Position numbers and translations under genes: made by a program
The notes under the pieces: generated by a model
Databases searched by the model: none
What the model was told of the DNA's origin: nothing
The model's input: only the letters and a program-made list of their open reading frames with translations
Part shown: positions 7,510 to 49,636 of the stretch, one piece after another
Layout: every line of letters starts with the position of its first letter
Position numbering within the stretch: the first letter of the stretch is position 1
From: an uncultured archaeon
GTDB lineage: Archaea; Iainarchaeota; Iainarchaeia; Iainarchaeales; GCA-2688035
Direction of reading: 5' to 3'
Length of the DNA: 64,000 nucleotides
NCBI GenBank assembly: GCA_964640195.1
Contig: CAZXIC010000005.1
Coordinates: 4,996-68,995, forward strand

Positions 7510-7510
7510 A

Positions 7511-7582
7511 TGCGTTCGTCGGGACTCGAACCCGAATTGCAAGCTTGGGAAGCTTGAAGCCTAACCATTGGCTGACGAACGC
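7511..7582 (-). tRNA. tRNA-Gly (anticodon CCC), no encoded CCA
   Basis: Minus-strand sequence GCGUUCGUCAGCCAAUGGUUAGGCUUCAAGCUUCCCAAGCUUGCAAUUCGGGUUCGAGUCCCGACGAACGCA. It folds by hand into a cloverleaf: 7-bp acceptor GCGUUCG/CGAACGC, D stem AGCC/GGCU, anticodon stem CAAGC/GCUUG with loop UUCCCAA, T arm UCGGG-UUCGAGU-CCCGA. Confidence 0.9.
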
Positions 7583-9687: not shown

Positions 9688-9795
9688 AAACAGCTTAAAA
9701 GATTGGGGCAAAAACAGTTTTCCCTGCAAAAAAAGCATTTAAAGGAATTTAGGGCTTCTTTTATATGCCTATAAGCCTTTTTGCTCGGGATTGAG

Positions 9796-33897: not shown

Positions 33898-34188
33898 TCA
33901 CACTCCTGCTTCCCTGAGGTGGGCGCTGTGAACCAGCAGCCTTTTCTGCAGGCTGCCTTTCCTGACAACAACCGCGTGCAGCTTGCCCTGCTTTCCCGCC
34001 ACAACGCCGCTGCTGCCGTGATACCCTTTGTGGGGCATCCCGCTGTGCTCTGCCGGGTTTATCAATACCCTTACCCTGCTGCCATCCTTGAATTCCCTGA
34101 GCAGCTGGTTGACAGTTGCCTTTTTTCCAGTGCCTTTCATCTTGCTCCTGGTCTTGGCTCTCTTGCCCCTTGCCTTCTTGTTGCTCAC
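33898..34188 (-). CDS. rpl21e: Ribosomal protein eL21 (L21e)
   Basis: 'KARGKRAKTRSKM..REFKDGSRVRVLINPAEHSGMPHKGYHGSSGVV' is typical L21e. GTG start preceded by AGGTGA. Confidence 0.9.
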   Translation of the reverse strand: MSNKKARGKRAKTRSKMKGTGKKATVNQLLREFKDGSRVRVLINPAEHSGMPHKGYHGSSGVVAGKQGKLHAVVVRKGSLQKRLLVHSAHLREAGV

Positions 34189-34467
34189 AGCAATTCACCT
34201 TTTCGCCAAATATATCTACTCAAGCTAATACAGCGAATAAGAATAAGGGTGCTGGGAAAAATTTAAAAAACCGTTCAAGGCGGCTGTGCAGCCTGCTGGA
34301 ACGGTACGTGGGGCGGGTGCACCGTAACCCGCTCTCCCGCGCTTCGGCTTTGTTACAAAAGTAGGGTATTTTTGCAACAGAATTGCTAAAAACAGCAAGT
34401 TGTTGAAAAATCACCGGAAGTCTCCTCTATCGTAAGCCATTTAAAAGCCAAAGTATAAGGCTTAATT

Positions 34468-35088
34468 ATGGGCCATTTATTTTTGGATATTGAAACTTAT
34501 TCTTCTCCAAAGAATAGCGATTCTTCACTTAATCCTCACATTGAAGGAGCGAAAGTAATTGTGGTCGCATACAATTACTACGATTCCTTTAAACCACCTA
34601 AAAAAGAAGCAATAAAGCCACCAACATTTTTGAAGGAATGGGAAAGTGATGAGAAAACAATTTTGACCCAATTTTATAAGTTTCTAAAGGAGGCGAGAAG
34701 GAATGACCCTTTTTTGAAAATAATTGGTTTTAATACAACAAAATTTGATTTACCATACTTGTTTGGGAGGATGTCATTGCTAAAAATAGCACCAGATGAG
34801 GAATTACATGAGCTTTTATTTGGACCTTTTGCTGTGGATATGTTTCAGCTTAGTGCCATAATATCCCCCATAACAAAACAATACGAGCAATTATGGACTA
34901 TGAATCACAAAGAAACCTCCTCTTTCTTTAAATTGCAGGAAAAAGAGGGAACTGGTTTGGGATGTAGCAGATTTTACGATGCTGAGGAGTTTGAAAAAAT
35001 AATGAAATATTGTACAGAAGAGTTCAATCTAGAACAGATGCTTGATTGCTTTTATCTCCATGTTCTTGAAACATCCCTCAAAGGATAG
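34468..35088 (+). CDS. Stand-alone RNase-H-fold 3'-5' exonuclease related to the family-B DNA polymerase exonuclease domain
   Basis: Exo I-like 'LFLDIETYS' and Exo II-like 'IIGFNTTKFDLPYLFGR' motifs. The gene is visibly AT-rich compared with its flanks. Confidence 0.65.
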   Translation: MGHLFLDIETYSSPKNSDSSLNPHIEGAKVIVVAYNYYDSFKPPKKEAIKPPTFLKEWESDEKTILTQFYKFLKEARRNDPFLKIIGFNTTKFDLPYLFGRMSLLKIAPDEELHELLFGPFAVDMFQLSAIISPITKQYEQLWTMNHKETSSFFKLQEKEGTGLGCSRFYDAEEFEKIMKYCTEEFNLEQMLDCFYLHVLETSLKG

Positions 35089-35210
35089 AGTCAATAAAAG
35101 GCGAGTTGTTGAAAAAATAACTCTTTTTTGAAACCCAACATTCTATTTATACTTTCCTGCTTGCAGAGGCAGGAAAGTTTTTATAGTGCTGTGAGTGTTA
35201 GTACCTTATC

Positions 35211-35819
35211 ATGTCAAAATGGAAATCTAGGAAAAAGAAAGAGAAGAAGAGATTAGCAAAAAATAAGTTAGTTCCAATGAATATTGTAAGAAGATGCCTT
35301 TACATCATAGAAAATCTAAGAACTATTTATCTAGATACCGCAATTTTGGGCTATAAAACAGACGCTGACAGAGAGCAGAGAAGTGGAAAAAGTTTGCTAT
35401 GGTTTGTAAAAAGACACAATCGTACAACATTCATCTCGTTTGTTGATGTTTATGAAATAAGGCCAATTTTTAGAATTAGAAAAGGAAAAGAGAGTTTAAA
35501 AAAGAAGATTATTGATGCAACAGAAGAATTCTCCCCAAAAGTTATTATGGAAAAAGAAACCTTGGAGACATTAAGAAAAAATAGAGATTTTCTGGACTTC
35601 CTCTTGAAGCTTGGAATTGAAGATGCTGACGCAGCTCATTTTACTATCGCTTTATTTAAGAAAATAGATTTGTTTGTAAGCTTTAACAAAAGAATATTTA
35701 AAAATAAAAAAACCAGAATCTTGAGGGAGGTAATGCGAAGAAGACTAAAAATGCCAGTAGTGTGGTGTATAGAAGATATAGAGTCAAATCTTGAAGAAAT
35801 GAAGAAGCATAATTTTTGA
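35211..35819 (+). CDS. Hypothetical protein, possibly PIN-like
   Basis: 202 aa, AT-rich and very basic. 'TIYLDTAILGY' and 'EDADAAHFTIALFKKIDLFVSFNKR' weakly resemble the first and last acidic motifs of PIN domains. The ORF is solid but the PIN assignment is weak. Confidence 0.4.
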   Translation: MSKWKSRKKKEKKRLAKNKLVPMNIVRRCLYIIENLRTIYLDTAILGYKTDADREQRSGKSLLWFVKRHNRTTFISFVDVYEIRPIFRIRKGKESLKKKIIDATEEFSPKVIMEKETLETLRKNRDFLDFLLKLGIEDADAAHFTIALFKKIDLFVSFNKRIFKNKKTRILREVMRRRLKMPVVWCIEDIESNLEEMKKHNF

Positions 35820-35824
35820 AACGG

Positions 35825-36043
35825 CTATTTGCTTAAATCTCGATAGAGGCCTATTTTACTAAACTCTCTTCTTAGCTTTCTAAAATATTTTGTAGCCCCT
35901 TCGTGAGAATAGATTTCCATCATCTTTGGGGCAGTAGCTATCTCAATCAGTTCTTTACTGTGCCCATTTGGCCCTATCCTAGGGTTATTAAAAAGCCGCA
36001 TATAGTCAATGCCAGTATTCTTGACCTTGCTCATCTTTCTCAC
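35825..36043 (-). CDS. Hypothetical small protein
   Basis: 72-aa ORF in the low-GC island. No family recognised. Confidence 0.35.
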   Translation of the reverse strand: MRKMSKVKNTGIDYMRLFNNPRIGPNGHSKELIEIATAPKMMEIYSHEGATKYFRKLRREFSKIGLYRDLSK

Positions 36044-36147
36044 TAAATAATTATCATTTAGGAATCTTTTTAAACTGGCATCAATTTAAGACAGCATAAT
36101 AAGAATTTTTGAACTATAAAAATTTATGCGTTGTCTACATAATTCCT

Positions 36148-36199
36148 GATTTTATGTGCAACTCATTACCTTTTATGTGCAGGATTGATTTTATGTGCA
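36148..36199 (+). repeat. Three direct copies of TTTTATGTGCA (two extended to GATTTTATGTGCA)
   Basis: Copies start at 36150, 36171 and 36189 (spacing 21 and 18 nt). They lie directly before the right-hand copy of the 12-nt repeat CCCGCGCTTCGG (36205-36216). Confidence 0.8.
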
Positions 36200-36251
36200 A
36201 ACCCCCCGCGCTTCGGGCTAAAACTCCCCTTTTTTAAATGTTTGCGAAGCC

Positions 36252-36315: not shown

Positions 36316-36915
36316 GTGCGCTACACCATCGTGAACCTTGTTGCCTCAGCGAACCTGAACGCAACGCTTGACCTGTACAACCTTGCGATAACGATTCCGA
36401 ACATTGAGTATGAACCAGAGCAGTTTCCTGGCGCAATCCTGAAGCTGAAGGAGCCCAAAGTTTCAATGCTGCTGTTCAAGAACGGGAAAGTGATTTGCAG
36501 CGGCGCGAGCAGCGAGAGGGAAATCAGCCTTGCGATAAGGAAGGCAAGCAAGCTGATTCACGAGATACAGAAAAAGGTGAAGGTGCAGAAAAGGGTAAAG
36601 TACAACGTCGTTAACCTTGTTGCAACCGCTAACCTGAACCAGATGCTCGACCTGTTCCAGATTGCCCTGAAGCTTGACAACGTTGAATATGAGCCGGAGC
36701 AGTTTCCCGGCGCAATCCTCAGAATCAGCGAGCCAAAGCTTACCTTGCTCTTGTTCAAGAACGGCAAAATGATTTGCGCCGGCGCAAAGAGGGAATCGCT
36801 GTTGAAAAGGGGCCTCAAGGTTGCGGCAGAGCTGATTGTCGGAAAACGGAGGAAAAAAGCTGCAAAAAAGCAGGGCAAGGCAGGGAAGAAGAAGGCAAAA
36901 GGAAAAAGAAAGTAG
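36316..36915 (+). CDS. tbp: TATA-box-binding protein with basic C-terminal tail
   Basis: Two direct repeats: 'IVNLVASANLNATLDLYNLAI..EYEPEQFPGAILKLKEPKVSMLLFKNGKVICSGA' and 'VVNLVATANLNQMLDLFQIAL..EYEPEQFPGAILRISEPKLTLLLFKNGKMICAGA'. GTG is the first possible start, with an in-frame stop 9 nt upstream. Tail 'GKRRKKAAKKQGKAGKKKAKGKRK'. Confidence 0.95.
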   Translation: MRYTIVNLVASANLNATLDLYNLAITIPNIEYEPEQFPGAILKLKEPKVSMLLFKNGKVICSGASSEREISLAIRKASKLIHEIQKKVKVQKRVKYNVVNLVATANLNQMLDLFQIALKLDNVEYEPEQFPGAILRISEPKLTLLLFKNGKMICAGAKRESLLKRGLKVAAELIVGKRRKKAAKKQGKAGKKKAKGKRK

Positions 36916-36992: not shown

Positions 36993-37110
36993 GATTAGCG
37001 GCCATGCCGCAGGGGAAACACCTGGACTCATTCCGAACCCAGAAGTTAAGCCCTGCAGGGAAAAGGTTCGCGCTGAGCTGCTGCTTGGAGCGGTCTAGAC
37101 GCTGCTAATC
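36993..37110 (+). rRNA. rrf: 5S ribosomal RNA (stand-alone gene)
   Basis: GATTAGCGGCCATGCCGCAGGGGAAACACCTGGACTCATTCCGAACCCAGAAGTTAAGCCCTGCAGGG...GCTGCTAATC. Helix I pairs GATTAGC with GCTAATC. The universal 'CCGAACCC..GAAGTTAAGCC' loop C/helix III motif is present. No 16S/23S is nearby. Confidence 0.88.
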
Positions 37111-37114
37111 ATTA
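37098..37114 (+). repeat. Left copy of the 17-bp direct repeat GACGCTGCTAATCATTA (last 13 nt of 5S plus 4 nt)
   Basis: Exact match to 37823-37839. Confidence 0.9.
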
Positions 37115-37137
37115 AACTAATAGAAGGCCTTTAATCG

Positions 37138-37674
37138 CTATTTTTTCCAGCGAATTTTTTCAACTTCTTCTTCTCCAATCGAGATTGTTTCATTGCAAAC
37201 TTGGTTTAAATGAAATGACTTTGTTTTTGGAAAGCAAACGTTTACGATTTTCTTTCCAAAGTCTTGTGCGGCTTTGATTGCTGGCACAAAGTCTGCATCG
37301 CCTGAAACAATAATGCCTCTGTCATAGAGACTCGAATAGGCATGCGTTACGATGTCAACTGCCATTCTGACATCAACACCTTTCTCAACTGGCGGCCCTT
37401 TTGACCTTTTTTCAAGCCTACCTAACTTTACCTCAAATTTTGGAATCTTCGAAAGCGCGGAGAAAAACTTTTGCTGGTTCTGGTAAGCTTTTGGGTCTAC
37501 TTTCTGATTCAAGGGCGCATTGTAATAGTAGACTTGAACAAGCCTGTGCTGACCAGCAAGAAAATAAACAAATTTCTCAAAGTCAAGTTTCGCTTTGCCA
37601 AAATTCTTAAGTAGGTCATGATAGAGATTGCTCCCATCAATAAAAACAATTACTTTCTCTTTCTTAAAGCGCAT
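37138..37674 (-). CDS. NYN-domain (LabA/DUF88-like) putative ribonuclease
   Basis: 'VIVFIDGSNLYHDL', 'EKGVDVRMAVDIV' and 'IIVSGDADFVPAI' are the acidic NYN/LabA motifs. Start trimmed to ATG 37674. Confidence 0.8.
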   Translation of the reverse strand: MRFKKEKVIVFIDGSNLYHDLLKNFGKAKLDFEKFVYFLAGQHRLVQVYYYNAPLNQKVDPKAYQNQQKFFSALSKIPKFEVKLGRLEKRSKGPPVEKGVDVRMAVDIVTHAYSSLYDRGIIVSGDADFVPAIKAAQDFGKKIVNVCFPKTKSFHLNQVCNETISIGEEEVEKIRWKK

Positions 37675-37690
37675 GAACAAAACCAGAAAC

Positions 37691-37714
37691 AAGGGATTGC
37701 AATTGCAATCCCTT
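37691..37714. promoter_or_regulatory. Perfect 24-bp palindrome AAGGGATTGCAATTGCAATCCCTT
   Basis: Lies 17 nt upstream of the NYN gene ATG. A second imperfect hairpin, CCTGCCgTTGC-CAAA-GCAAaGGCAGG, is at 37727-37752. Confidence 0.7.
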
Positions 37715-37822
37715 GGAGATAATAAACCTGCCGTTGCCAAAGCAAAGGCAGGGAGATAATACAATAATATTGTAATTAGCAGAAGTTAATAAAGTTAACT
37801 TATACATAAAATGTGAATGCCG

Positions 37823-37839
37823 GACGCTGCTAATCATTA
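37823..37839 (+). repeat. Right copy of the 17-bp direct repeat GACGCTGCTAATCATTA
   Basis: Exact match to 37098-37114. Confidence 0.9.
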
Positions 37840-37961
37840 TTTAATGCAACTGCCGTAATCACCCTTGTTTTTGCAGTTTGCGCCGTTTTTCGCAGCAGCC
37901 CCTCCCTTTTGCCCTTATTTATTAGTTTTATATATAATACTATAAAAGAGAGGACGGGAAA

Positions 37962-38264
37962 TTAGGGCTGTTGAAAAACATCTGGTACAACATAGTAGAC
38001 TGTTTTGATGTTTAGGCCTTTCTCCTTCTTAACCAAAGGCCTGTTAATGCCCTTGTTCTGCAAAGGGTTGTAGGTTGCCCGCATCTGCAGCAAACTCAGC
38101 TGCTTCCCGATAGTGTAGACAGAAGAACCAGTTCGCTTGCTCAAAAGCTTCAAGGTCAGCGGACCTGAAGCCAGCTCAAGCATTATTTTCTGCTGCAATG
38201 GCGACAGATTCGCCAAAACAGTCTCATCCAAGAGAAAGACTTTTTCTTTTGAATGCAAAGGCAA
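37962..38264 (-). CDS. Small winged-helix transcription regulator (ArsR/MarR-like)
   Basis: 100 aa. 'LQQKIMLELASGPLTLKLLSKRTGSSVYTIGKQLSLLQ' is wHTH-like. Divergent from the giant surface-protein gene. Confidence 0.6.
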   Translation of the reverse strand: MPLHSKEKVFLLDETVLANLSPLQQKIMLELASGPLTLKLLSKRTGSSVYTIGKQLSLLQMRATYNPLQNKGINRPLVKKEKGLNIKTVYYVVPDVFQQP

Positions 38265-38552
38265 GTTTTATTCCCACCAAGAAAGGCAAATTTTTTGACA
38301 CTTCCTACAATTAATTAGTTAACTAAAACAATTTAAAGTTAATGTTGTAACCATAAGGGGTTAACTTTTTGATTTTTAGCAAAAAGCCTTTGATTTTATT
38401 AAAAACCTGCAATTACAGATAGCTTAAACATAATTTTTTCCGATTTTCAAACTTAAACATAATGTTTGACTAAAAGAAAAGATATTTAATAAAGAGTTGC
38501 CAGATATTATAGGATAATTTTTCACCGAAGAGTGAAAAGGGGGTAGGGTTAA

Positions 38553-41500
38553 ATGAGCAGGCAAGAGCATAAGCACTTATTTTCAAAAACAACTTCTTGG
38601 GGTGAAGGAATCCTTCCATACGCAAGGCTTCCGCTGCTCTTCCTTATCATGTTCTCACTGGCCGTTTCGGCTTTCGCAGCTCATGACACCGTTGTAACCG
38701 TTTCCCCCGACTACGCACGATGCGGTGACCTCCCACTTGAGTACACAATAAATGTCTACAACAAAGATACTTCAGCAGACAGCGTAAGGGAAGTCAGGAT
38801 TTATGATGATGTTGATGGAGACGGTCAGAGAGACCCTGGAATAGTTGACTTCCAGTGCGGACCAGCACCAACAGGCTGGACTCTTGATGACAGGCTCGCG
38901 CTTTATAATTATTGCCACTATGAAACAGGGGTTGCTGGCGGGTATATGATTGACCCAGATGAAGACCTTGATTTTAGTTTTTCTGCACAATTGGATGACA
39001 GCAGCCTGGAAGAATGTGGAAACGAATTTAAGATTGCTTCAATTGACGACAAAATTCCAATCGGGGAAGTTGTATTCAAATTCCCGAAGATTTTGGTTGA
39101 CTGTTCAGACCCTGTAGTTACAAAAGCAGTCGGAACACCAAAAGTACTTATTAGCGCACCGGGCTGTGATGAAGGCCCGTTCCAGGGAGAGGGCGAGACA
39201 GCATGCGACTGGTGGATTAGACATGGCACAGAGATTGAAACTGAAGCCACTGAATACGACGAATGCGACCTAGGATTAGATTATTGTGAAATAACATACA
39301 CAGTTGACGGCGGAGCCCCGATAACGCAGGTTCACGCGGACTTTGAGCCAGAAACCTATGATTGGGATTATGACTGGGACTTTGACGAAGACTCAGTGCA
39401 CGTTATCGAAATAAAATGTACCGACGTTGTAGGAAACAAGACTGTTGTAACAGAAAGTGACAAGGTTGACGACACGCCGCCGGTAACTACAAAGGTTGTC
39501 TCAGAGCCGAAGAAGATTGATAGCGGCGTTGAATGGATTGACTCAGTAACAGAAATAAGCTTAAGCGCGGAAGACAAGGGAGAGACCTGCCACATAGGCG
39601 TGGAGAACACCTTCTATAACATAATACAGGCAGAAGACAGCTACTGCTGGGAACAGTGCGCAGGATGGCAGCCAGGTATCCCGAACAGGGAAGGTGAAGG
39701 CTGGACACAGTACACCGGCCCAATTAGTGACATTGCAGAATCATGCCACGTAATGGAATATTACAGCGTGGACAAGATTGGAAATATTGAAGACGTGAAG
39801 GTAAACTGCTTCTTCGTTGACAAGACAGCTCCGGAGCAGATTAAGACTATTGGAGAGCCAAACGTGCCTTGCAGGGACTTGGAATGCGAGGAGTTCGACT
39901 ACTGGGTAAGGGACCAGAGCACGCTGCCAGGGACAGAGATAACCTTGGACTGTGACGACAGCTGGAGTGGAAAAGCACCACACCCATCAGGAGATGAGGA
40001 AGTTTGCTACAAGGTTTCATACGACATTCCAGCACCCATGACAGACATAACAGCCAAGTACTGCCCGGAGGCACTGGAAACAGTAACAGACTCAGGGTAT
40101 GAGGGCGACTGGTGCTGTATTCCTGCACCGGAAGTGATAGTATTTGCGGAAGACTCGCTGCACAACCTTGAGTACTTCTGCATGGATGCAGTGAACAAGA
40201 AGAGCCCTATAGACCTTGAATACTTCAGGGTTGACTCCCAGCCGCCAATCATAGACAAGACAATGAGCGGCCCGCAGATTGGGGGCTGCCCGCCGGGAGA
40301 AGGCGAGGACTGCTGGATAAAGGACTGGGAGCAGGCAGAAGGAACAACAATCCACATTGAGGCAACTGACGACGACACATATGGTTGCGCGGTTGACGAT
40401 ATCACCTGTGAATGGTCGTACAAGCTGGATGGCGAGCCGATGCAGGGAGAAGGCTGCTTGGGACCGTCCTTTGACATAAAGTTCTACGATGAAACACAGC
40501 ACGAGCTGTTAGTTAAATGCTGCGACAAGCTTGGCAACTGCGCGGAAGACGTTGAAACATTCTACGTTGACTCAAGCGGCCCAACAGTGGAGAAAGAGTT
40601 CATCGGACCGAAGAAGATTGATGGCAGCGTTGAATGGATTGACAGCGTAACAACGATTGAGCTGACGGCAACAGACCAGCCTGACGCGCCGTGCGCGGTA
40701 GGCGAGGACAAGATATACTATGTAATAACGCCAATGGAAGACGATGCCTGCTGGATGCCGGAAAAGTACTGCTACTCAGGGGAATATATGCCAGGCGCAT
40801 TCACAGAATACGCTGGTCCCATCGGGGGCATAGAGGAATCCTGCCACAGGATAGAGTTCTATGCTGTGGACAAGCTCGGAAACATCGGCCCAATGGGAAA
40901 GAATTGCTTCTTTGTTGACAAGACAGCGCCAACAATTACCAAGGACAACGGAGACGCGATTCCTGACACAGGCGAGCCAGCATTCATGACCGAAGACAAC
41001 CCTGGGGGGGACTTCAACTGGATTTCAAAGAACATGCCGATAACGTTCACCTGTGAAGACCAGGGAGACCACCCATCAGGAGACGAAGAGCTTTGCTACA
41101 AGGTTTCATACGACTATGTTGAAGTGGAGCCAGGCGCCTATGACTGGGGTTACATTACAGGGGAATACTGCAGCACAGAACTAACTGCAGAGGGCTACTG
41201 CTGTATGACTGGAACAGCACAAGAGCCATTTGAGTTCTACTTCCAGGAGGACTCAATGCACAACCTTGAGTACTACTGCAGGGACGCGGTGGAGAAATCG
41301 AGCGGTGTCCACGTGCAGTACTACAAGGTTGACACTGAAGGACCGGAAATAACAAAGACACTTAATGAGCCATACTATGGCGAGTGCCCGCCAGAAGACG
41401 AGGGCGATGTATGCTACGTTGACAGCGCAACAACCATCGACGTGGAAACTGAAGACGGCGGTGAAATCTGCGCTGTTGGCGGCGTTGAATGTAGATGGCA

Positions 41501-43001
41501 GCTGTTGGACGTAAGCGGTTACCCAGTTGTAGACTGGACAACTGATATGCCAATAAGCTTCCCGGAAGAATGCCAGCACACTCTTGTAATTGAGTGTGAG
41601 GATGCGCTTGGAAACGTGGAAACAGACACAGAAACATTCTTTGTTGACAAGACGCCTCCAGGAATCTGGAAAGAATACGGAAGCCCGTACTTTGCAGGCA
41701 GCGTTGACGACTGGGAAGCAGAATGGATCAACAAGAACACACTAATCTCCGCAGGCGTCACTGATGACGGCCCGCACCAGTCAGGCATTGCGGCAGTGGA
41801 ATACAGGGCCACAATAGTGGACGAGGAGTACTGCAGGAACAGGGACGAAGACGAGATGGTCTGCGAAGATGCTGAAGGAAGCGGAGTCTGGACTGAGGTT
41901 GAGGCAGAGGACTGGGATGAATTTGAGTTCAGCATAACAGAAGAGTCCTGCCACCTGATAGAGATATACGCAGAAGACAACGTGGAAAAGAACAGGACCC
42001 ACAAGCAGTGCGTGTTCGTTGACAGCACAGCACCAACGCCGGAGAAGACTGTTGGCGAGCCAAAAACGCCGTGGGACGGAAAGGACTCACAGTTCTATGA
42101 ACTGGATGATTTCTGCAGTATAGCAGGAAACTGCTGGGCAGTGACTTTGCTGACTCCAATTGCTTTGGAGTGCATTGACCCACAACCGCATCCTGTTGAT
42201 AATGAAACAGTGTGCTTTTATGTGGAAAGGAATGCAGACAACGAAACAGCAGAATACTGCGAGTTTTACGGCGGAAGCATAAACGATGAGGGGTTCTGCT
42301 GTATGGAGAAGACCACTCCGGAGTTTTACTTCCTCGAAGAGTGCGAGCATAACCTGCAGTATTACTGCGTTGATGCACTGGGGAACATGGGGCCAATAGA
42401 CGATGAGAAATTTAAGGTAGCTGGTACAACGTTTGAAATACAGTTGAACAAGAAATGGAACCTTGTTTCAGTTCCATACGTATTGCTCAATGATGACATT
42501 GAGGAAGTGTTAAGCGGAGTAAGCGATAACCTCGATTCAGTGTGGCAGTACGACGCTGTCGCTGACCAATGGTATGTCTATAGACCAGACGACCCGCTTG
42601 GAAGCAACCTTTCAACAATAGAACCAGGCTGGGGTTACTGGATAGCAATGGACGATGCCGACCTGCTTACAATAGGCGGAAGCCTATTCAGCCCGGTAAC
42701 AACACCGCCAGAAAGGGCATTGAAGCACGGCTGGAACCTGATTGGCTATTACGGAGCTGAGGGCCAGGGAGGCTACTACGGACCAGTTGGCAGCGGAAAG
42801 ATGGCTAGATGCGCTCTGTTCTCACTAGGGGAATCCTTCACCGACAAGGGCTGGACAGCCCTGTTAACATATTGGGAACCAGACAATCCAGGCCAGTGGA
42901 AAGAATACAGCTACTACCAAAGCCTAGACCCAGGGGCAGGATACTGGCTTTTTGCCTCGGAAGACAGCATATACAGCTATGTGACTATATGCGGCGGATA
43001 G
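38553..43001 (+). CDS. Giant secreted/cell-surface protein: ~10 tandem Cys- and Asp/Glu-rich beta-sandwich-type modules plus a C-terminal Trp-rich domain
   Basis: 1482 aa with an N-terminal signal/anchor 'LPLLFLIMFSLAVSAFAAHD'. Modules end in 'GN....F[FY]VD[KS][ST][AGP]P'-type motifs, in the manner of Ig-like/OmpL47-type domains. Recurrent 'HPSGDEE[VL]CYKVSYD' and 'KKID[SG][GS]VEWIDSVT'. The C-terminal ~220 aa contain two 'WNL[VI]..' / 'PG.GYW[IL]' half-repeats. Confidence 0.85.
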   Translation: MSRQEHKHLFSKTTSWGEGILPYARLPLLFLIMFSLAVSAFAAHDTVVTVSPDYARCGDLPLEYTINVYNKDTSADSVREVRIYDDVDGDGQRDPGIVDFQCGPAPTGWTLDDRLALYNYCHYETGVAGGYMIDPDEDLDFSFSAQLDDSSLEECGNEFKIASIDDKIPIGEVVFKFPKILVDCSDPVVTKAVGTPKVLISAPGCDEGPFQGEGETACDWWIRHGTEIETEATEYDECDLGLDYCEITYTVDGGAPITQVHADFEPETYDWDYDWDFDEDSVHVIEIKCTDVVGNKTVVTESDKVDDTPPVTTKVVSEPKKIDSGVEWIDSVTEISLSAEDKGETCHIGVENTFYNIIQAEDSYCWEQCAGWQPGIPNREGEGWTQYTGPISDIAESCHVMEYYSVDKIGNIEDVKVNCFFVDKTAPEQIKTIGEPNVPCRDLECEEFDYWVRDQSTLPGTEITLDCDDSWSGKAPHPSGDEEVCYKVSYDIPAPMTDITAKYCPEALETVTDSGYEGDWCCIPAPEVIVFAEDSLHNLEYFCMDAVNKKSPIDLEYFRVDSQPPIIDKTMSGPQIGGCPPGEGEDCWIKDWEQAEGTTIHIEATDDDTYGCAVDDITCEWSYKLDGEPMQGEGCLGPSFDIKFYDETQHELLVKCCDKLGNCAEDVETFYVDSSGPTVEKEFIGPKKIDGSVEWIDSVTTIELTATDQPDAPCAVGEDKIYYVITPMEDDACWMPEKYCYSGEYMPGAFTEYAGPIGGIEESCHRIEFYAVDKLGNIGPMGKNCFFVDKTAPTITKDNGDAIPDTGEPAFMTEDNPGGDFNWISKNMPITFTCEDQGDHPSGDEELCYKVSYDYVEVEPGAYDWGYITGEYCSTELTAEGYCCMTGTAQEPFEFYFQEDSMHNLEYYCRDAVEKSSGVHVQYYKVDTEGPEITKTLNEPYYGECPPEDEGDVCYVDSATTIDVETEDGGEICAVGGVECRWQLLDVSGYPVVDWTTDMPISFPEECQHTLVIECEDALGNVETDTETFFVDKTPPGIWKEYGSPYFAGSVDDWEAEWINKNTLISAGVTDDGPHQSGIAAVEYRATIVDEEYCRNRDEDEMVCEDAEGSGVWTEVEAEDWDEFEFSITEESCHLIEIYAEDNVEKNRTHKQCVFVDSTAPTPEKTVGEPKTPWDGKDSQFYELDDFCSIAGNCWAVTLLTPIALECIDPQPHPVDNETVCFYVERNADNETAEYCEFYGGSINDEGFCCMEKTTPEFYFLEECEHNLQYYCVDALGNMGPIDDEKFKVAGTTFEIQLNKKWNLVSVPYVLLNDDIEEVLSGVSDNLDSVWQYDAVADQWYVYRPDDPLGSNLSTIEPGWGYWIAMDDADLLTIGGSLFSPVTTPPERALKHGWNLIGYYGAEGQGGYYGPVGSGKMARCALFSLGESFTDKGWTALLTYWEPDNPGQWKEYSYYQSLDPGAGYWLFASEDSIYSYVTICGG
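39507..41708 (+). repeat. Two tandem ~1.1-kb (367-codon) super-repeats inside the giant gene, followed by a third degenerate copy to ~42.4 kb
   Basis: CCGAAGAAGATTGAT(A/G)GC.GCGTTGAATGGATTGAC occurs at 39507 and 40608 (period 1101 nt). CACCCATCAGGAGA.GA.GA..T.TGCTACAAGGTTTCATACGAC occurs at ~39981 and ~41071. Each super-repeat comprises three module types. Confidence 0.8.
42926..42975 (+). repeat. Copy 1 of a perfect 50-bp direct repeat (inside the 3' end of the giant gene)
   Basis: AGACCCAGGGGCAGGATACTGGCTTTTTGCCTCGGAAGACAGCATATACA is identical to 43089-43138. Confidence 0.95.
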
Positions 43002-43016
43002 TGTAAATTCCGCCAA

Positions 43017-43036
43017 TTTTTTATTTTTTAGTTTTT
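43017..43036 (+). terminator. Oligo-T tracts (archaeal-type terminator) after the giant gene
   Basis: TTTTTTATTTTTTAGTTTTT begins 16 nt after the stop codon. Confidence 0.5.
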
Positions 43037-43088
43037 CTTCCAGTGGGGTGAGGCAGTGACATTTTTTGAAAACAGTGGTATGACTGCA

Positions 43089-43143
43089 AGACCCAGGGGC
43101 AGGATACTGGCTTTTTGCCTCGGAAGACAGCATATACAACTAA
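43089..43143 (+). pseudogene. Orphan 3'-terminal gene fragment (17 codons plus stop) homologous to the end of the giant surface-protein gene
   Basis: In frame it reads DPGAGYWLFASEDSIYN-stop, identical to the giant protein over 'DPGAGYWLFASEDSIY'. The frame is closed by TGA two codons upstream (43081-43083). Confidence 0.7.
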
Positions 43144-43228
43144 TACAACAGGGCGTTAGGCAATAGAACCAGAAAAAAGGAAAGCATTTAAATATATTTT
43201 CATTTATTAACTATATAAAGTGGGGAAA

Positions 43229-44305
43229 ATGGGTTTTTCAAGATACCTTGCCCTGATTGCGTTTTCACTGCTTTTTTTGGGGGCGGCTTTTGCTGTTCCT
43301 GGCATACCGCACCAGTTTCGCGGCAATGTGACTGTTAATGGCGCGGCAGCCGATGGCGCAACAATCGTGGCAAAAATAAATGATGTTGAACATGGAAGCA
43401 CGACCAGTGTTGACGGCACATACGGCCAGAGCCCAAACGTGTTTTTTGTAGAAAACCCAAGTGGGGAGAACCTTGATGGAAAAACCATTGAATTCTATTT
43501 GAATGGCACAAAAGTCGCAAGCGCTGTTTTTGAGAGGGGCGCAAAAACAGAGCTTGACCTGAGCCTTGGCACTGCGCCTTACTGCGGCGATGGAGCCTGC
43601 GGTGCCGGCGAAGACTGCGGAAACTGCCCTGCTGACTGTGGCGAATGCAGCACACCGCCTTCATCGCCGCCTTCATCTTCACCGCCTTCATCGTCCCCCA
43701 GTAGTGGCAGCATCAACAAGCTTACCGTCAGGGTTGCCGGAAACTGCATTGACCAGAATATTGTTGTCACTGTTTTGAACACGATGGGAAACCCTGCGGC
43801 TGATGCAACTGTTGCGCTTGTAAGGGGCTTCAAGCAGCTGGAAGAGAAGGTAACAGGCTCTGACGGAATTGTTTATTTTATAATAACTGAAGCAGGCGAG
43901 TACACCTTTGTTACAACAAAAAACTTGTACACTGCGACCTACACGAAAATCGAGGTTGGCGAGTGTACTGACGAAGAAGTGACTGCCAGTGACAGTGAGC
44001 AAACGACTAACCCGTGCGAGAGCATCAATTGTGATGATTCAAATCCCTGCACTGTAGAATATTGCTCTTTGGCAACAGGGCATTGTATTTATGAGAACCA
44101 GCCTGACGGTACAGTCTGCAGCCTGGAAGGAAAGTGCGAGAAAGGTGTTTGCACTGAACCCGAACCAGAAGAGATGCCACTAGGCCAAACGGGCTTTTTT
44201 GGGCTTAATGCAGGGCAGGGGGGCGGGCTTGGCTTGCTTATTGTGGCATTGGCCGCAGGAGCTGGCTATTTATACGCTCTCAGCAAGAGAAAAAAGAAGA
44301 AATAA
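43229..44305 (+). CDS. Secreted, C-terminally membrane-anchored surface protein with Cys-rich modules and a Ser/Pro linker
   Basis: Signal peptide 'MGFSRYLALIAFSLLFLGAAFA'. 'YCGDGACGAGEDCGNCPADCGEC', 'PPSSPPSSSPPSSSPSSG' and 'CESINCDDSNPCTVEYCSLATGHCIYENQPDGTVCSLEGKCEKGVC' are present. The C-terminal TM helix 'GLGLLIVALAAGAGYLYAL' is followed by 'SKRKKKK'. Confidence 0.8.
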   Translation: MGFSRYLALIAFSLLFLGAAFAVPGIPHQFRGNVTVNGAAADGATIVAKINDVEHGSTTSVDGTYGQSPNVFFVENPSGENLDGKTIEFYLNGTKVASAVFERGAKTELDLSLGTAPYCGDGACGAGEDCGNCPADCGECSTPPSSPPSSSPPSSSPSSGSINKLTVRVAGNCIDQNIVVTVLNTMGNPAADATVALVRGFKQLEEKVTGSDGIVYFIITEAGEYTFVTTKNLYTATYTKIEVGECTDEEVTASDSEQTTNPCESINCDDSNPCTVEYCSLATGHCIYENQPDGTVCSLEGKCEKGVCTEPEPEEMPLGQTGFFGLNAGQGGGLGLLIVALAAGAGYLYALSKRKKKK

Positions 44306-44492
44306 TGCGCTTTTTTTCAGATAAAGGCACCTAACCCAATTAGATTCTGCTGGCAGACAGCCCCAATTTTGCCGCCAATTAAGGGGATTTCCCTAATCAT
44401 TTTCCACCATCAACCAGTGTTGATTTTTCTTGTCCCTCTTGGCAAAAAGGTTTTTAAGTATATAGCTATTTCATTATACTTGTGAAGTCTTA

Positions 44493-44708
44493 ATGACTAC
44501 ACTGGGAATTGTGAAGACAGCCCATTACAAACGCTTCCATGAAAGGTTTGTCCCCTGGAGCTTGGTTGTTGAGACGATTTTCACAGGAAAGCAGAAAAGG
44601 AAGGGACGTGACTTCATTGAATTTAAAGGGAGAAAAATTTATGTTTTTTGCAAAAGGGACAGGGCAAGAAACATGCTGAAAGTGATTAACGCCAAAAAGG
44701 AGGGTTGA
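44493..44708 (+). CDS. Small protein, possible DUF4258-like toxin
   Basis: 71 aa. 'KTAHYKRFHERFVPWSLVVETIFTG....FKGRKIYVFCKRDRARNMLKVINA' loosely fits the DUF4258 pattern (H-x3-R...R). The next ORF starts 1 nt after its stop codon. Confidence 0.4.
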   Translation: MTTLGIVKTAHYKRFHERFVPWSLVVETIFTGKQKRKGRDFIEFKGRKIYVFCKRDRARNMLKVINAKKEG

Positions 44709-44709
44709 A

Positions 44710-45042
44710 ATGCTGTGCAAAAAATGCGGTGGAAAACTTGAGCGTTTCGCTGTAGAGGTCGAGGACAGCGATTTAGGCAGCGAAGGATTCGAATGCAAAA
44801 AATGCGGAGAACTGTTCTTTGATGAGAAAAAGGGCAAGGCATTGGTAGAAGGCTTGAAGAGAAAAGAATTGCTCAGGGAATTGCCGGCACTAAGCATAAG
44901 GCAGAAAATAATCAAGCTTTCAAAGGACAGGCTGGGGTTCTACTTCAACAAGGACTTGGCAAGGTGCGCAGAATTGAAGGCCGGAGAGCCGATAGAAGTA
45001 AGCTTGTTGGACAAAAAAAGAATTTTGATAGAAGTTGAATGA
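44710..45042 (+). CDS. Zinc-ribbon + AbrB/SpoVT-like domain protein, possible antitoxin
   Basis: 'CKKCGGKL....ECKKCGELFFDE' (a C-x2-C...C-x2-C motif, MqsA/YgiT-like) followed by 'IRQKIIKLSKDRLGFYFNKDLARCAELKAGEPIEVSLLDKKRILIEV' (swapped-hairpin AbrB-like). Confidence 0.5.
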   Translation: MLCKKCGGKLERFAVEVEDSDLGSEGFECKKCGELFFDEKKGKALVEGLKRKELLRELPALSIRQKIIKLSKDRLGFYFNKDLARCAELKAGEPIEVSLLDKKRILIEVE

Positions 45043-45143
45043 GAACACTGCCTTGGAGAAGCCACTTTCCCCCTAACCCAAAACACCTTTTAAAAACTCT
45101 TTATTGGAAAATATATTGCAACCTTGGTTGGGGCGGTGCTTTC

Positions 45144-46448
45144 TTGAAGGTAACTCTGCTGAATGTTCGCTCTGAGAAAAATTACTGCATGAACAAGGAT
45201 GTCATGGGCAGCATGGGCAGCGTTACGCACATCGGCAAGGGACTAAGGGCAAAGGCGATTGAGTGGGGCAAGAAGCGTGGCGTGAGGCTGCCTGTCTTCT
45301 CGTTTGGTTATCTTGCAGCGATTTTTTCTGATGCAGGGCATGAAGTGCAGGTTTTGGAGAATGCTGTGCCAAAGGAAAGTGATTTGGTCATAATAGCAAG
45401 CTCGATTGTTGACGTCAGGGCGGAAACAGCCTTTGCGGAAAGGGTTAAAAGGGAAACAAACGCAACTGTTGGATTCATCGGTGCGTTTGCCTCAGCCAAG
45501 CCTGAGATTTTCCTCAGAAGGGCAGATTTCGTTATAATGGGCGAGCCTGAGAATGCGGCGAAAAAAATCGCTACCGGGACAAAACCAAAAGGCGTTATCA
45601 AGAGCAAGCCTGTCCAGAAGCTTGAGGAACTGCCATTCCCGAAATGGCAATTGTTTCCGGTAGAGGAATACAGCTATTTCCCGCAGCTGCGGAAAAAGCC
45701 CTTCCTGCCCATCCTCTCAAGCAGGGGCTGTAGTTTCAGCTGCACCTACTGCCCCTACAGGGCATTCTACGGCGGCTGGAGGCGGAGGCAGCCAAGGAAC
45801 GTTCTTGCTGAGATAGATTACCTTGTGCAGAATTTCGGCGTACGCTCAATTCTTTTCCGCGACCCGCTGTTCAGCCTGGACAGGAAGAGGGTGCTGCAGA
45901 TAGCAGAAGGCATCAAGGAAAGGAAACTTGGATTGGAGTGGGCTTGCGAGACAAGGCTTGAGTTCTTGGACAAGCAACTTGTTGACGGGATGCACGAGGC
46001 AGGCTTCAGGGCATTGAATGTCGGCATTGAATCGCAAAGTGGCAGGGTGCTGCACGGCGTAAAGAGGAAATCGCCGGGAAGAAGCCAGGGGGAGAAGATT
46101 ATTGAGTACTGCAACAGGAAAGGCATCAGGGTCGCGGCATTCTACGTCCTGGGGCTGCCTGATGACACAGAGGAAACAATCAAAGCGACTGTTGAGTACG
46201 CGAAGAAACTGGACACGAACGTCGCGCAGTTCACCCTGTGCACGCCCTTTCCCGGAACAAAGCTTTATGAGCAGCTGAAGCCGAGGGTTTTTGAGCGGGA
46301 CTGGGAAAAGTTTGACTCATTCACGCCAGTGTTCAGGCACGATAATTTTTCAAAGGAGAGGCTGGAGCAGCTGAAGGAAGAAGCGTTTGCCTCCTATTAC
46401 TTCAGGCCAAGGTATTTGCTGAAATTCCTTCTAAGAATGTTTGGGTGA
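45144..46448 (+). CDS. B12-binding-domain radical SAM enzyme (~434 aa)
   Basis: The N-terminal Rossmann-like region ('DLVIIASSIVD', 'VGFIGAFAS') precedes the radical SAM motif 'LSSRGCSFSCTYCPY' (CxxxCxxC). The start is uncertain (TTG 45144, or ATG 45039 as in the ORF track). Confidence 0.8.
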   Translation: MKVTLLNVRSEKNYCMNKDVMGSMGSVTHIGKGLRAKAIEWGKKRGVRLPVFSFGYLAAIFSDAGHEVQVLENAVPKESDLVIIASSIVDVRAETAFAERVKRETNATVGFIGAFASAKPEIFLRRADFVIMGEPENAAKKIATGTKPKGVIKSKPVQKLEELPFPKWQLFPVEEYSYFPQLRKKPFLPILSSRGCSFSCTYCPYRAFYGGWRRRQPRNVLAEIDYLVQNFGVRSILFRDPLFSLDRKRVLQIAEGIKERKLGLEWACETRLEFLDKQLVDGMHEAGFRALNVGIESQSGRVLHGVKRKSPGRSQGEKIIEYCNRKGIRVAAFYVLGLPDDTEETIKATVEYAKKLDTNVAQFTLCTPFPGTKLYEQLKPRVFERDWEKFDSFTPVFRHDNFSKERLEQLKEEAFASYYFRPRYLLKFLLRMFG

Positions 46449-46456
46449 CATGGAAA

Positions 46457-47311
46457 ATGGATTTGGTTACGGGCGCAACTGGCTTCATCGGCTTGAACCT
46501 TGCGGAAGAGCTCAGCAAAAGGGGAAAAGTGAGGTGCCTTGCAAGGGAAAGCAGCAAGGGTCTAGGGCAACTGCGGAAGCTCAATGCTGAAATAGTTTTC
46601 GGCAGCCTTGAGGACAGGCAGAGCCTTGACAGGGCAACGAAGGGCGTTGCAACCGTGTTCCATCTCGCTGCTTCGCTCAATTCTCGGAATGCACTCGAAC
46701 TGCAGAGGGTTAATGTTGAAGGGGCAAGGAATTTGGCGGAAGCGTGCAGAAGGAATGGTGTCAAGAGAATCGTTTTCCTGAGCACCTACCTTGCCTCAGA
46801 GCAGTATAGCAGCGTTTACGGGAAAACAAAGAGGGAAGCTGAAAAGAGGGTGCGGAAAAGCGGGATTCCCTTCGTGATTGTAAGAGCCTCCGTTGTTTAC
46901 GGCAAGCATGACAGGAGAAATCTCGCAAAAATAATAAGTGCAGTGAGGAGAATGCCGGTTATCCCAGTTATTGGCGGGATAAAAATGCAGCCTGTTTTTA
47001 TCCTTGACCTTGTGAAGGCGCTGCTTGCGTGCGCAGCTGAGAAGAAAGCCCTGGGCAACGTATATAACATTGCGGGAGACAGGGTTTACTCTTTCAGGGA
47101 AATCGTTTCACTGATTGAGGAAGCAGTTGGGGTGAGGAGGATAAAGGTTCCATTGCCTTTCTGGATTGCAAAGCTGCTGTTCAGGCCTGCAGCGCGCCTG
47201 GAAGACATGGCGAGGTTTTCAGTTATTGACTGCAGCAGGGCAAAAAAAGACCTTGGATTCAGGGCAACGCCCTTTGCCCTGGGGATAAAGTCAACGCTTG
47301 AATGCCAGTGA
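46457..47311 (+). CDS. NAD-dependent epimerase/dehydratase (extended SDR)
   Basis: 'MDLVTGATGFIGLNLAEEL' glycine-rich motif and 'YGKTK' (YxxxK). Confidence 0.85.
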   Translation: MDLVTGATGFIGLNLAEELSKRGKVRCLARESSKGLGQLRKLNAEIVFGSLEDRQSLDRATKGVATVFHLAASLNSRNALELQRVNVEGARNLAEACRRNGVKRIVFLSTYLASEQYSSVYGKTKREAEKRVRKSGIPFVIVRASVVYGKHDRRNLAKIISAVRRMPVIPVIGGIKMQPVFILDLVKALLACAAEKKALGNVYNIAGDRVYSFREIVSLIEEAVGVRRIKVPLPFWIAKLLFRPAARLEDMARFSVIDCSRAKKDLGFRATPFALGIKSTLECQ

Positions 47312-47313
47312 TT

Positions 47314-48846: not shown

Positions 48847-48890
48847 AAAGTGGGATGATTAATTTAAATAAATTGGTGCAAAAACCGCAT

Positions 48891-49538
48891 TTATTTGAAT
48901 ATTTTGCCTGTTTCCCTGCTCCAGAAAAGAAGGTCAAGCTCTGCAAGCGGGATGCCTGCGCGCTTGCTGAATGAACGCATTTTTTCCTCAACCGCAAGGT
49001 ATTTCCTTGGGCTGAGGCTTTGGGGCATTTCCCTGATTGCACCGTAACGCAGCAGGTTGCGCAGTATGTGCCTGTCAAGGATTGCGACATCGGAGCCAAA
49101 GCCGATGTTGCGCAGAAAATGGGATGCCTCTTTCATCCCGATGCCTTTGACGTTGGCAGCCAGCCAGCCCCTTGCAGCTTTCTGGTTCCTGTCAATGCCG
49201 AGGCCCAGCAGCTTTTGCTTGATGCCTGGCATCATGAGATTGTGGGCTGCAACTATGTAGGATGCCTTGTTCCTGTGGAACCTGGCCTTTTTTGCAATAA
49301 TTCTGGCAATCTCTGTCTTGTCCCCCTTGTCCAAAACGCGTTTTGCAATCATTTCGTTCACAGCTGCGTCGCACTGCAGTGCATTGCTCTGCGGGGTGCA
49401 TAGGCAGAATGCAAGCTCGGCAAAAACTGCCTCGCTGCCCTTCTCCCAGGTCCTGCTGAATTCCCCAAGCCTTTTGCGTATCTCGCGCCTCTTTTCCTTG
49501 TGTTCCCGACGCAGTTGCCCTAGTTTTTTGCCAGGCAT
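48891..49538 (-). CDS. ogg: 8-oxoguanine DNA glycosylase/AP lyase (Ogg2-type, HhH-GPD)
   Basis: 'FAELAFCLCTPQSNA' and the HhH 'VKGIGMKEASHFLRNIGFGSDVAILDRHILR' (Lys/Asp catalytic pair context). Confidence 0.8.
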   Translation of the reverse strand: MPGKKLGQLRREHKEKRREIRKRLGEFSRTWEKGSEAVFAELAFCLCTPQSNALQCDAAVNEMIAKRVLDKGDKTEIARIIAKKARFHRNKASYIVAAHNLMMPGIKQKLLGLGIDRNQKAARGWLAANVKGIGMKEASHFLRNIGFGSDVAILDRHILRNLLRYGAIREMPQSLSPRKYLAVEEKMRSFSKRAGIPLAELDLLFWSRETGKIFK

Positions 49539-49636
49539 CTGCTAAAAGAGTTGCCTAAGAAGCTTTTTCTTTTAATGCCTTTCCCTCCGCAGGGCGGTTT
49601 TGTTATTTAAATTTATTGCTCTTACCATAGTAAAGC

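Follow-up and report, generated by a model that had tools for sequence, protein, structure and literature searches.

Small gene cassettes are joined recurrently, and in one orientation, to the last 12 to 13 nucleotides (nt) of the 5S rRNA gene (ACGCTGCTAATC) in 12 of 100 related genomes of the archaeal order Iainarchaeales. One such cassette, of 708 bp and with a gene for an NYN/LabA-like nuclease as its cargo, occupies this junction in the 64,000-nt stretch of contig CAZXIC010000005.1 that was analyzed here (the window, meaning this stretch at its full length). The window is part of a 1.19-Mb genome (G000), a metagenome-assembled draft of 36 contigs that is 88% complete. The insertion is lineage-specific, compositionally deviant and horizontally acquired, and it lies at the 3' end of the 5S rRNA gene. 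Judged from the sequence comparisons, it probably arose when the 5S tail and a tail-mimicking site of a small circular cassette underwent conservative site-specific recombination, catalyzed in trans. This mechanism is favored on the basis of foreign distal repeat copies, the junctions of cassette arrays, a fixed edge of the shared core and a conserved arm motif. The 5S tail would be a docking site, not reported in the literature searched, for mobile cassettes that do not encode a recombination enzyme.

The 5S rRNA gene of the window is full-length and intact, with a match to the Rfam model over positions 1 to 120 of 120 at 70.8 bits (gathering score of 38). Its end forms part of an exact 17-mer, GACGCTGCTAATCATTA, which is repeated with 17 of 17 positions identical at a spacing of 725 nt. 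These two copies were the only ones found in the whole genome, and no third copy was detected in the window even when two mismatches were allowed. The positions of the gene, the repeats and the segment enclosed by them are as follows.

36994 to 37110, plus strand: 5S rRNA gene (RF00001), the insertion target.
37098 to 37114, plus strand: proximal direct repeat, similar to a left attachment site (attL-like), composed of the last 13 nt of the 5S rRNA gene plus ATTA.
37115 to 37822, no strand assigned: inserted cassette of 708 bp, AT-rich, single-copy in the genome and absent behind the 5S rRNA gene in all relatives.
37823 to 37839, plus strand: distal direct repeat, similar to a right attachment site (attR-like), in which the 5S tail appears again in displaced position; behind it lie a T-rich, terminator-like flank and a second TAATC at 37856 to 37860.

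The segment between the repeats was found to deviate strongly from its genome in composition, with a GC content of 0.3785 compared to a genome mean of 0.482 (standard deviation of 0.038 for windows of 708 nt), which places it in the lowest 1.9% of such windows. The NYN gene, the only gene within the 708 bp, has a GC content at third codon positions of 0.385 compared to 0.55 to 0.68 in neighboring genes. Neither an integrase nor a transposase gene is present in 37115 to 37822. An earlier annotation of this DNA (the original prediction) had described an exact 17-nt repeat of the 5S end around about 0.7 kb of AT-rich DNA with a single minus-strand NYN gene, palindromes and no integrase or transposase, and had interpreted it as an att-like duplication at an unusual 5S target. 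The repeat, the composition, the gene content and the palindromes were all confirmed, and the same architecture was detected with different cargo in 11 other genomes. A search for further copies of the segment, as had been proposed, revealed it to be single-copy in G000 and found homologous NYN modules in other genomes at sites other than 5S.

The expectation of about 0.1 given in the original prediction for any exact 17-mer pair in 64 kb proved to be about right, if arguably optimistic. Two further exact direct repeats of 17 to 18 nt, both unexplained, connect distant sites of the window (48332/62579 and 55768/63070) and provide an empirical chance baseline; thus, a 17-mer pair of any kind is not rare in a stretch of this length. 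These repeats, and the draft state of the metagenome assembly, are what could be said for a chance repeat beside a vertically inherited NYN gene or for an assembly artefact, an explanation that is scarcely credible on the remaining evidence. By contrast to any such pair, a 17-mer pair less than 1 kb apart at the end of an RNA gene is rare, and this one also brackets a compositional outlier. Two matches to GACGCTGCTAATCATTA were obtained in 0 of 100 dinucleotide-preserving shuffles of the window. Short-read assemblers usually use words longer than 12 to 17 nt, so a repeat of this size is not expected to produce a misjoin. Chance is eliminated by the comparative data, as the signature is present in the 11 other, independent assemblies with a strand asymmetry of 14 to 0.

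The 5S locus was compared in 60 related genomes, in 57 of which a 5S rRNA gene was found, as a single gene. In these relatives the 3' end of the gene is nearly invariant (...GACGCTGCTAATC, ending ...GCTGCTAATC) and leads straight into a T-rich terminator, (A/G)(C/T)TTTT. The window sequence behind the true 5S end (ATTAAACTAATAGAAGG...) is unlike this terminator-type flank, whereas the sequence after the distal repeat (ATTATTTAATGC...) resembles it. In the window, five or more consecutive T residues are first met 31 to 36 nt past the 5S rRNA gene, compared to 2 to 10 nt in relatives. An NYN gene was found beside the 5S rRNA gene in none of the 57 relatives. Three situations that the original prediction had named as speaking against an insertion, namely relatives with the same NYN gene in this place and no repeat, a repeat that belongs to a conserved 5S-flanking structure, and a composition in line with the genome, were not encountered.

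Sequence downstream of the 5S rRNA gene was sampled from 116 genomes of the order (up to 10 kb for the first 56 and about 6 kb for 60 more), and the tail was located in 100. All of these genomes are draft bins, and the 5S contigs of several relatives end less than 1 kb past the gene, which may hide further cassettes and may reflect strain variation at the site. The terminal 12-mer of a genome's own 5S rRNA gene was found to recur downstream 14 times in 11 of the 100 genomes, each time on the same strand; the reverse strand gave none, and about 0.035 recurrences per strand would be expected by chance over 586 kb. A twelfth genome, G020, has an exact core of 10 nt. When the first genome set was scanned with a 24-nt position weight matrix, three forward and no reverse hits were obtained. 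The junction recurs in the same orientation in four families, and the 12-nt core ACGCTGCTAATC (37099 to 37110 in the window) is common to all cassettes in the order. About 18 cassettes were identified in the 12 genomes, 87 nt to 5.9 kb in size and mostly of one or two genes, and no integrase or integrase fragment was detected in any of them. The cassettes carry their own promoters, are mostly oriented against the 5S rRNA gene, and are arranged in tandem arrays in four genomes (G012, G124, G132 and G131). The cargo behind the 5S rRNA gene of the relatives, in order from the gene where an order is given, is listed below.

G012: cassette with an S-adenosylmethionine-dependent (SAM) methyltransferase gene, then a cassette with an open reading frame (ORF) of 164 aa; three tail copies.
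G020: AbiEi/AbiEii.
G124: Fic, then NYN.
G132: NYN, then Fic.
G125, G116 and G131: Fic.
G126: nrdAB and Fic.
G127: GNAT and a truncated NYN.
G073: AAA_14/DUF4143 ATPase and others.

With 28 to 30% identity to the NYN protein of the window, those encoded in G124, G132 and G127 represent a different subfamily. In this second type of NYN cassette, G124 and G127 share 94% identity over 53 nt of the right end, compared to 72% at the DNA level for the genes. A recurrent protein of 413 to 427 aa that adjoins distal repeats was at first taken for an integrase candidate and proved to be a Fic-domain protein.

The origin of the distal repeat copies was addressed by comparing an occupied site with an empty one in the congeners G020 and G004. 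The 5S region of the two genomes aligns (57 to 346 in both), after which G020 continues from position 1594 as G004 does from position 286 onward, with 80% identity over 2.7 kb. This two-block alignment identifies G004 as an empty site and G020 as the carrier of a 1.3-kb AbiEi/AbiEii insertion. The native flank, GTTTTCAATTTC, stands directly behind the 5S rRNA gene in G004 and G021 and behind the distal copy in G020. The distal copy of G020 (TTTGGAGGGCCCTTGACGCTGCTAATC) is similar to about 32 nt from the 3' end of a 5S rRNA gene, yet 6 of 32 positions differ from the host tail (TTGGAGCGTTCTAGATGCTGCTAATC), and this although the non-coding sequence next to it is conserved. Thus, the copy arrived together with the cassette and does not stem from duplication of the target. 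Distal copies with a mismatched 5S-like extension were also found in G107 and in G012 (the third copy). In the array of G012, the middle copy has nothing but ACGCTGCTAATC in common with the other two, and both of its neighbors are non-native; the outer copy is followed by a native, convergent asparagine-synthase gene, the stop codon of which lies within the repeat. Two successive recombinations in the 12-nt core explain every junction of this array, and two target duplications do not.

The edges of the repeats were also informative. On the left, the exact match of the distal copies to the host tail stops at 12 to 13 nt in 12 of 18 copies; on the right, identity continues for 0 to more than 30 nt. 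Of 29 flanks in genomes with cassettes, 8 have the pentamer TAATC, which forms the last five bases of the 5S rRNA gene, once more at 18 to 26 nt past the core, compared to 3 of 88 other native flanks and a background of 0.009 per flank. Both repeat copies of the window are followed by it (37132 to 37136 and 37856 to 37860), and the conservation of this arm motif suggests recognition by a protein. Since TAATC is also present in the distal flank, a further and older cassette may start beyond 37839.

These results bear on a target-site duplication, in which a fragment would have been ligated into a staggered break with cuts 12 to 13 nt before the 5S end and a variable distance downstream, the fill-in of which would generate the repeat with no need for an attachment site on the cassette. 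Such a process would be a hotspot variant of the insertion with long and variable target duplication known from restriction-modification genes. The variable right edge agrees with such a process, as do the inserts without mobility genes and a cargo of toxins, a methyltransferase and defense genes, which resembles that reported for insertions of this kind (PMC2853133, PMC3457768). We consider it unlikely nonetheless. The distal copy of G020 is not a copy of the host target, the 5S-like extensions in G107 and G012 are mismatched as well, the middle copy of G012 with its non-native neighbors follows directly from sequential att recombination, the site recurs in one orientation across four families, and TAATC suggests protein recognition. 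In addition, the repeats are mostly 12 to 20 nt in length, below the 30-bp threshold of the class (PMC2853133).

Within the cassette of the window, DNA similarity to NYN loci elsewhere spans 37141 to 37801, an interval that takes in the ORF together with about 125 nt of non-coding DNA upstream of it; the similarity stops 26 and 22 nt before the repeats. The matching loci are in G004 (77%), G023 (71%), G039 (two copies) and G015. From left to right, the cassette is organized as follows.

37115 to 37140, plus strand: cassette-specific left end of 26 nt, P'-arm-like, without homology to NYN modules elsewhere; TAATC at 37132 to 37136, 22 nt past the core.
37138 to 37674, minus strand: NYN/LabA-like nuclease gene, 178 aa (PF01936, 6.7e-25; PADLOC HEC-09, 3.2e-24, and NYN, 2e-12; PDB 2QIP, 2.5e-6).
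37690 to 37715, minus strand: leader hairpin 2, a perfect 13+13 palindrome that follows UUUAUUAUCUCC in the NYN sense and lies just before the ATG.
37727 to 37752, minus strand: leader hairpin 1, a conserved 12-bp stem that follows UAUUAUCUCC (plus strand GGAGATAATA, 37752 to 37761).
37786 to 37793, minus strand: TATA-like box of the NYN gene, TTTATTAA, conserved in G004 and both copies of G039 (G039a, G039b).
37801 to 37822, plus strand: cassette-specific right end of 22 nt, P-arm-like; homology to other NYN modules ends at about 37796 to 37801.

The NYN protein matches PF01936 with 88.7 bits (cut-off of 24.2) over profile positions 1 to 144 of 145, and three conserved acidic motifs (FIDGSN, GVDVRMAVD and SGDADF) are readable in its translation. 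It also matches the PADLOC candidate defense profile HEC-09 at 2 to 181 of 203 positions as well as the LabA-like NYN profile of PADLOC, and VPA0982 (2QIP) is its nearest solved structure. By contrast, the protein scores far under the cut-off of the archaeal equivalog TIGR00288 (36 vs 178 bits). Its cargo role is most likely that of a stand-alone defense or toxin nuclease, a putative assignment.

The closest homologues of the NYN protein are encoded on contigs labelled Candidatus Iainarchaeum, which makes a DPANN archaeon of the Iainarchaeales type the most likely source of the window. Homologues at 68 to 80% identity were found in at least six different genomic contexts; modules of the window type occupy at least six unrelated contexts in about nine genomes. 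The other copies of this type (G004, G023, G039, G015 and loci L058 to L061) have no tRNA, 5S or other Rfam match nearby, no 5S-tail-like sequence, and no flanking direct repeat of at least 11 nt except for a 15-mer at one copy in G039. Thus, the 5S-tail junction belongs to this insertion and not to the NYN module in general. In G039 (locus L055, G039:C76), two modules of the window type lie 1.4 kb apart (7412 to 8052 and 9362 to 9990); the 15-mer, AAGCTTAACTTTTCT, flanks one of them and overlaps the promoter region of the module itself. At L061 (4001 to 4540) the NYN gene, which is syntenic, is broken into two ORFs of 82 and 78 aa and is probably a frameshifted pseudogene.

The non-coding DNA upstream of the NYN gene contains conserved elements of its own. 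We infer a promoter at the TATA-like box, about 24 nt upstream of the conserved leader motif. This motif, UAUUAUCUCC, is invariant in NYN leaders and together with hairpin 1 forms a non-coding element of 38 nt that is identical in three genomes with coding sequences only 71 to 77% identical. Over 10 homologous copies of hairpin 1, 91.7% of cells are paired and four pairs have compensatory changes, a covariation score that was reached by 0 of 500 shuffles; its wobbles are G-U solely on the NYN-sense strand. Based on this covariation and strand preference, hairpin 1 most likely forms at the RNA level, as part of the mRNA leader. The hairpin 2 unit (UUUAUUAUCUCC plus the palindrome) was found only in the window, G004 and L058. 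The leader element (37690 to 37762) may be an autoregulatory target of the NYN nuclease, and the protein may act on its own leader hairpin.

The cassette comprises the NYN gene, its predicted promoter, the structured leader and about 20 to 26 nt of specific sequence at each end. By the recombination mechanism favored above, it would have entered as a circle of about 725 bp with an attachment site that mimics the 5S tail and a terminator-like flank, and an enzyme specific for the 5S tail and encoded elsewhere would have recombined this circle with the chromosomal tail inside the 12- to 13-nt core. The 5S rRNA gene would thereby stay intact and a second copy of its last 13 nt (plus 4) would be placed at the far end of the cassette; the arrangement before insertion would have been the 5S rRNA gene followed directly by ATTATTTAATGCAACTGCCGTAATCACC. 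Repeated events of this type would build the arrays seen in relatives, similarly to islands at tRNA genes or integron cassettes. Four tyrosine recombinases (PF00589) are encoded on other contigs of the genome, one XerA-like (C2:144339-144821) and three orphans of 400 to 495 aa (C8:11467-11973, C3:76279-76782 and C3:60794-61282). The candidate enzymes would be one of the three orphans, XerA, or an enzyme of an unseen plasmid or virus.

Several observations weigh against this mechanism. The repeat of the window is exact, stops abruptly on both sides and has no 5S-like extension, such that for the window alone a 17-bp target duplication fits equally well. In G131 the duplicated stretch exceeds 130 nt, which is more like a long target duplication. 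This locus (L243, 317 to 1603) reads tail, 87 nt, tail, Fic, tail, 87 nt, tail, with the two 87-nt units differing by two bases, and represents either two insertions of a minimal cassette without cargo or a target duplication of more than 130 nt. The left (P') ends of homologous cassettes are poorly conserved, and fused or truncated modules exist (G127). For the window itself, we infer the empty site from more distant relatives, in which the 5S rRNA gene leads straight into the terminator and the flanks cannot be aligned. None of the four tyrosine recombinases is linked to the site or has a 5S-tail-like sequence nearby. Neither metagenome scans nor viral contigs revealed the site on a plasmid, on a virus or in a free or circular form: exact-pattern metagenome scans for the right junction of the window and for the lineage-specific 24-mer of the 5S 3' end gave no match, nor did a scan of viral contigs for a 5S tail with terminator mimic. 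Finally, the NYN gene also moves, or is inherited, by routes other than the 5S tail. The modules of L059, L060 (Ca. Iainarchaeum andersonii) and L061 are retained in synteny with identities similar to those of neighboring genes, which weakens the argument that high identity across families means mobility; the distribution of the gene is patchy, yet it is not always freshly transferred.

The insertion stands at the edge of a larger region that differs among relatives. The gene order L21e (minus), TBP (plus) and 5S (plus) is conserved through the order. Next comes a gene for an oligosaccharyltransferase of the AglB/STT3 type, at a distance that in many relatives does not exceed about 1 kb (about 85 nt in G036) and in others reaches several kb; across the order, the gap between 5S and AglB measures about 0.1 to more than 8 kb. 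The two neighbors of the 5S rRNA gene in the ancestral order were located in the window as follows.

36316 to 36915, plus strand: TBP gene, the conserved upstream neighbor of the 5S rRNA gene, outside the element (PF00352, E 8.8e-52).
49637 to 51733, plus strand: AglB/STT3-type oligosaccharyltransferase gene, the ancestral downstream neighbor of the 5S rRNA gene and far edge of the island (TIGR04154, 1.6e-29).

In the window, AglB starts 12.5 kb after the 5S rRNA gene and the ancestral order of L21e, TBP, 5S and AglB is interrupted. Based on this displacement, the DNA from the 5S tail onward is a variable island with the NYN cassette as its first unit. The stretch from 37111 to 49636 has no synteny with any relative, and likewise the winged helix-turn-helix gene and the giant surface-protein gene downstream of the repeat are syntenic in none of them; the native flank of the window can therefore not be aligned. 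This stretch includes an ORF of 100 aa without a family match (37962 to 38264, minus strand) and a surface protein of 1482 aa. The 3' end of the 1482-aa gene is duplicated exactly over 50 nt (42926 to 42975 and 43089 to 43138), with the second copy 163 nt downstream of the gene.

These 12.5 kb are a patchwork of accessory genes, which agrees with a cassette that is the decayed remnant of a plasmid or provirus, larger and with an integrase gene, that had once integrated at the end of the 5S rRNA gene and in which internal deletions had left the NYN gene between the att sites. The classical att-like geometry and the fused or truncated modules of G127 are in line with such a history, as are short duplications at tRNA genes of the same genome that resemble scars. 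Direct repeats of tRNA 3' ends were detected downstream of 4 of the 16 tRNA genes found by ARAGORN in G000. Three of these (tRNA-Ile on contig C1, tRNA-Arg on C10 and tRNA-Gln on C21) have 16- to 22-nt copies of the 3' end 55 to 98 nt downstream. At the fourth, tRNA-Gln of C15 (20201 to 20293), the 3'-end 17-mer ACTCTCACCGGGGCTAA is found again 3155 nt downstream; the block in between (about 20.2 to 23.5 kb) is AT-rich (GC content of 0.37) and carries two genes of the radical-SAM type and an ORF of 147 aa, with no integrase. Decay from an integrase-encoding element is nevertheless very unlikely. No integrase or fragment is retained in any of the cassettes of 0.09 to 5.9 kb, deletions that leave an NYN module only 26 and 22 nt from the repeats would have to be almost perfectly flush, and the order of units differs between G124 (Fic-NYN) and G132 (NYN-Fic), indicating separate units. 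Moreover, the undamaged repeat and a composition that has not drifted towards that of the host indicate that the event is recent. The original prediction had offered a remnant and a non-autonomous element mobilized in trans side by side; the second is the better fit and the first fits less well, since small size and the lack of an integrase are common to all of the roughly 18 cassettes in these 12 genomes.

A second lineage-specific, AT-rich island (34336 to 36216; GC content of 0.31 to 0.35) was found between L21e (33898 to 34188, minus strand) and TBP, where the gap is 2.1 kb compared to about 260 nt in the closest relative, L032. It carries a gene for a stand-alone 3'-5' exonuclease domain of the PolB type (34468 to 35088; PF03104, 3.3e-7) and two ORFs without family, and is bracketed by the 12-mer CCCGCGCTTCGG at 34336 and 36205. 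A GC-rich segment of about 75 nt (34270 to 34347, plus strand) with two hairpins (-41 kcal/mol, z of -2.4) and an AT-rich, TATA-like stretch ahead of it ends exactly in the left copy of this 12-nt repeat. No Rfam match of the segment and no DNA conservation in L032 were detected. The segment could be an unannotated small RNA with its 3' end as another insertion point.

DPANN archaea have tiny genomes and are thought to be host-dependent. It is possible, and we suggest it tentatively, that DPANN archaea of the Iainarchaeales type have an integron-like form of gene capture, with the final 12 nt of the 5S rRNA gene as its docking site and probably further docking sites where other stable RNAs have their 3' ends. 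Toxin and defense cassettes (NYN, Fic, AbiE and others) with their own promoters would be inserted, accumulate in stacks and pass between lineages through the action of a recombinase encoded outside the cassettes, perhaps one of a new kind or a re-used host enzyme. If so, a 12-nt docking site behind a universal gene would account for the hypervariable island beside 5S, would offer a simple sequence criterion for spotting recently acquired genes in metagenome bins, and would point to a recombinase with a short, portable target that is possibly useful as a tool. The junctions would also provide natural cassette boundaries for candidate single-gene defense systems, such as NYN (HEC-09-like) and Fic proteins.

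Among known systems, transposons, insertion sequences and casposons differ from the cassette of the window, which has no inverted repeat joining its two ends and no transposase or casposase gene. As to the cargo, the window protein is a full-length match to the NYN/LabA-like nucleases (PF01936, 2QIP, HEC-09) with the acidic motifs kept, and the leader hairpin with UAUUAUCUCC is not a described feature of that family.

Integron cassettes, pdif modules and integrative mobile elements exploiting Xer (IMEX) are small toxin or defense units with short recombination sites, stacked in arrays and moved by a recombinase that the cassette does not encode. The 5S cassettes may be likened to integrons and Xer-dependent modules in their small units, stacking and putative recombinase in trans. 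By contrast to an integron, the 5S rRNA gene has TBP and the cassette as neighbors with no adjacent intI. Folding of the cassette junction of the putative circle as attC-like single-stranded DNA was not significant (z of -1.23), and no dif-like 11-6-11 dyad was seen at the junction by eye.

Insertion with long and variable target duplication (Nobusato et al. 2000; Furuta, Abe and Kobayashi 2010, PMC2853133; Lim, Furuta and Kobayashi 2012, PMC3457768) likewise concerns selfish or defense genes without a mobility gene between direct repeats of the target. The reported insertions are of restriction-modification and other genes with duplications of more than 30 bp (PMC2853133), and rRNA operons are among the noted sites of partial duplication (PMC2853133, PMC3457768). 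Their sites are non-recurrent and their repeats identical to the target, whereas here the same oriented junction of 12 to 13 nt is used in four families. The repeat of the window has 17 bp, and at least one distal copy (G020) is not the host allele.

Integration at tRNA and transfer-messenger RNA (tmRNA) genes is textbook knowledge. The differences from such islands are that the target here is the 5S rRNA gene, for which no report as an attachment site was found in the literature searched in full text, that the inserts of 0.1 to 6 kb encode no integrase, and that the shared core is only 12 to 13 nt. In other respects the two are alike. A direct repeat of the 3' end of a stable RNA surrounds foreign, deviant DNA and the RNA gene is regenerated intact, the element-side copy brings its own version of the RNA 3' end (G020, G107 and G012), and successive insertions form arrays. 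The same type of signature is also present at tRNA genes of the genome to which the window belongs.

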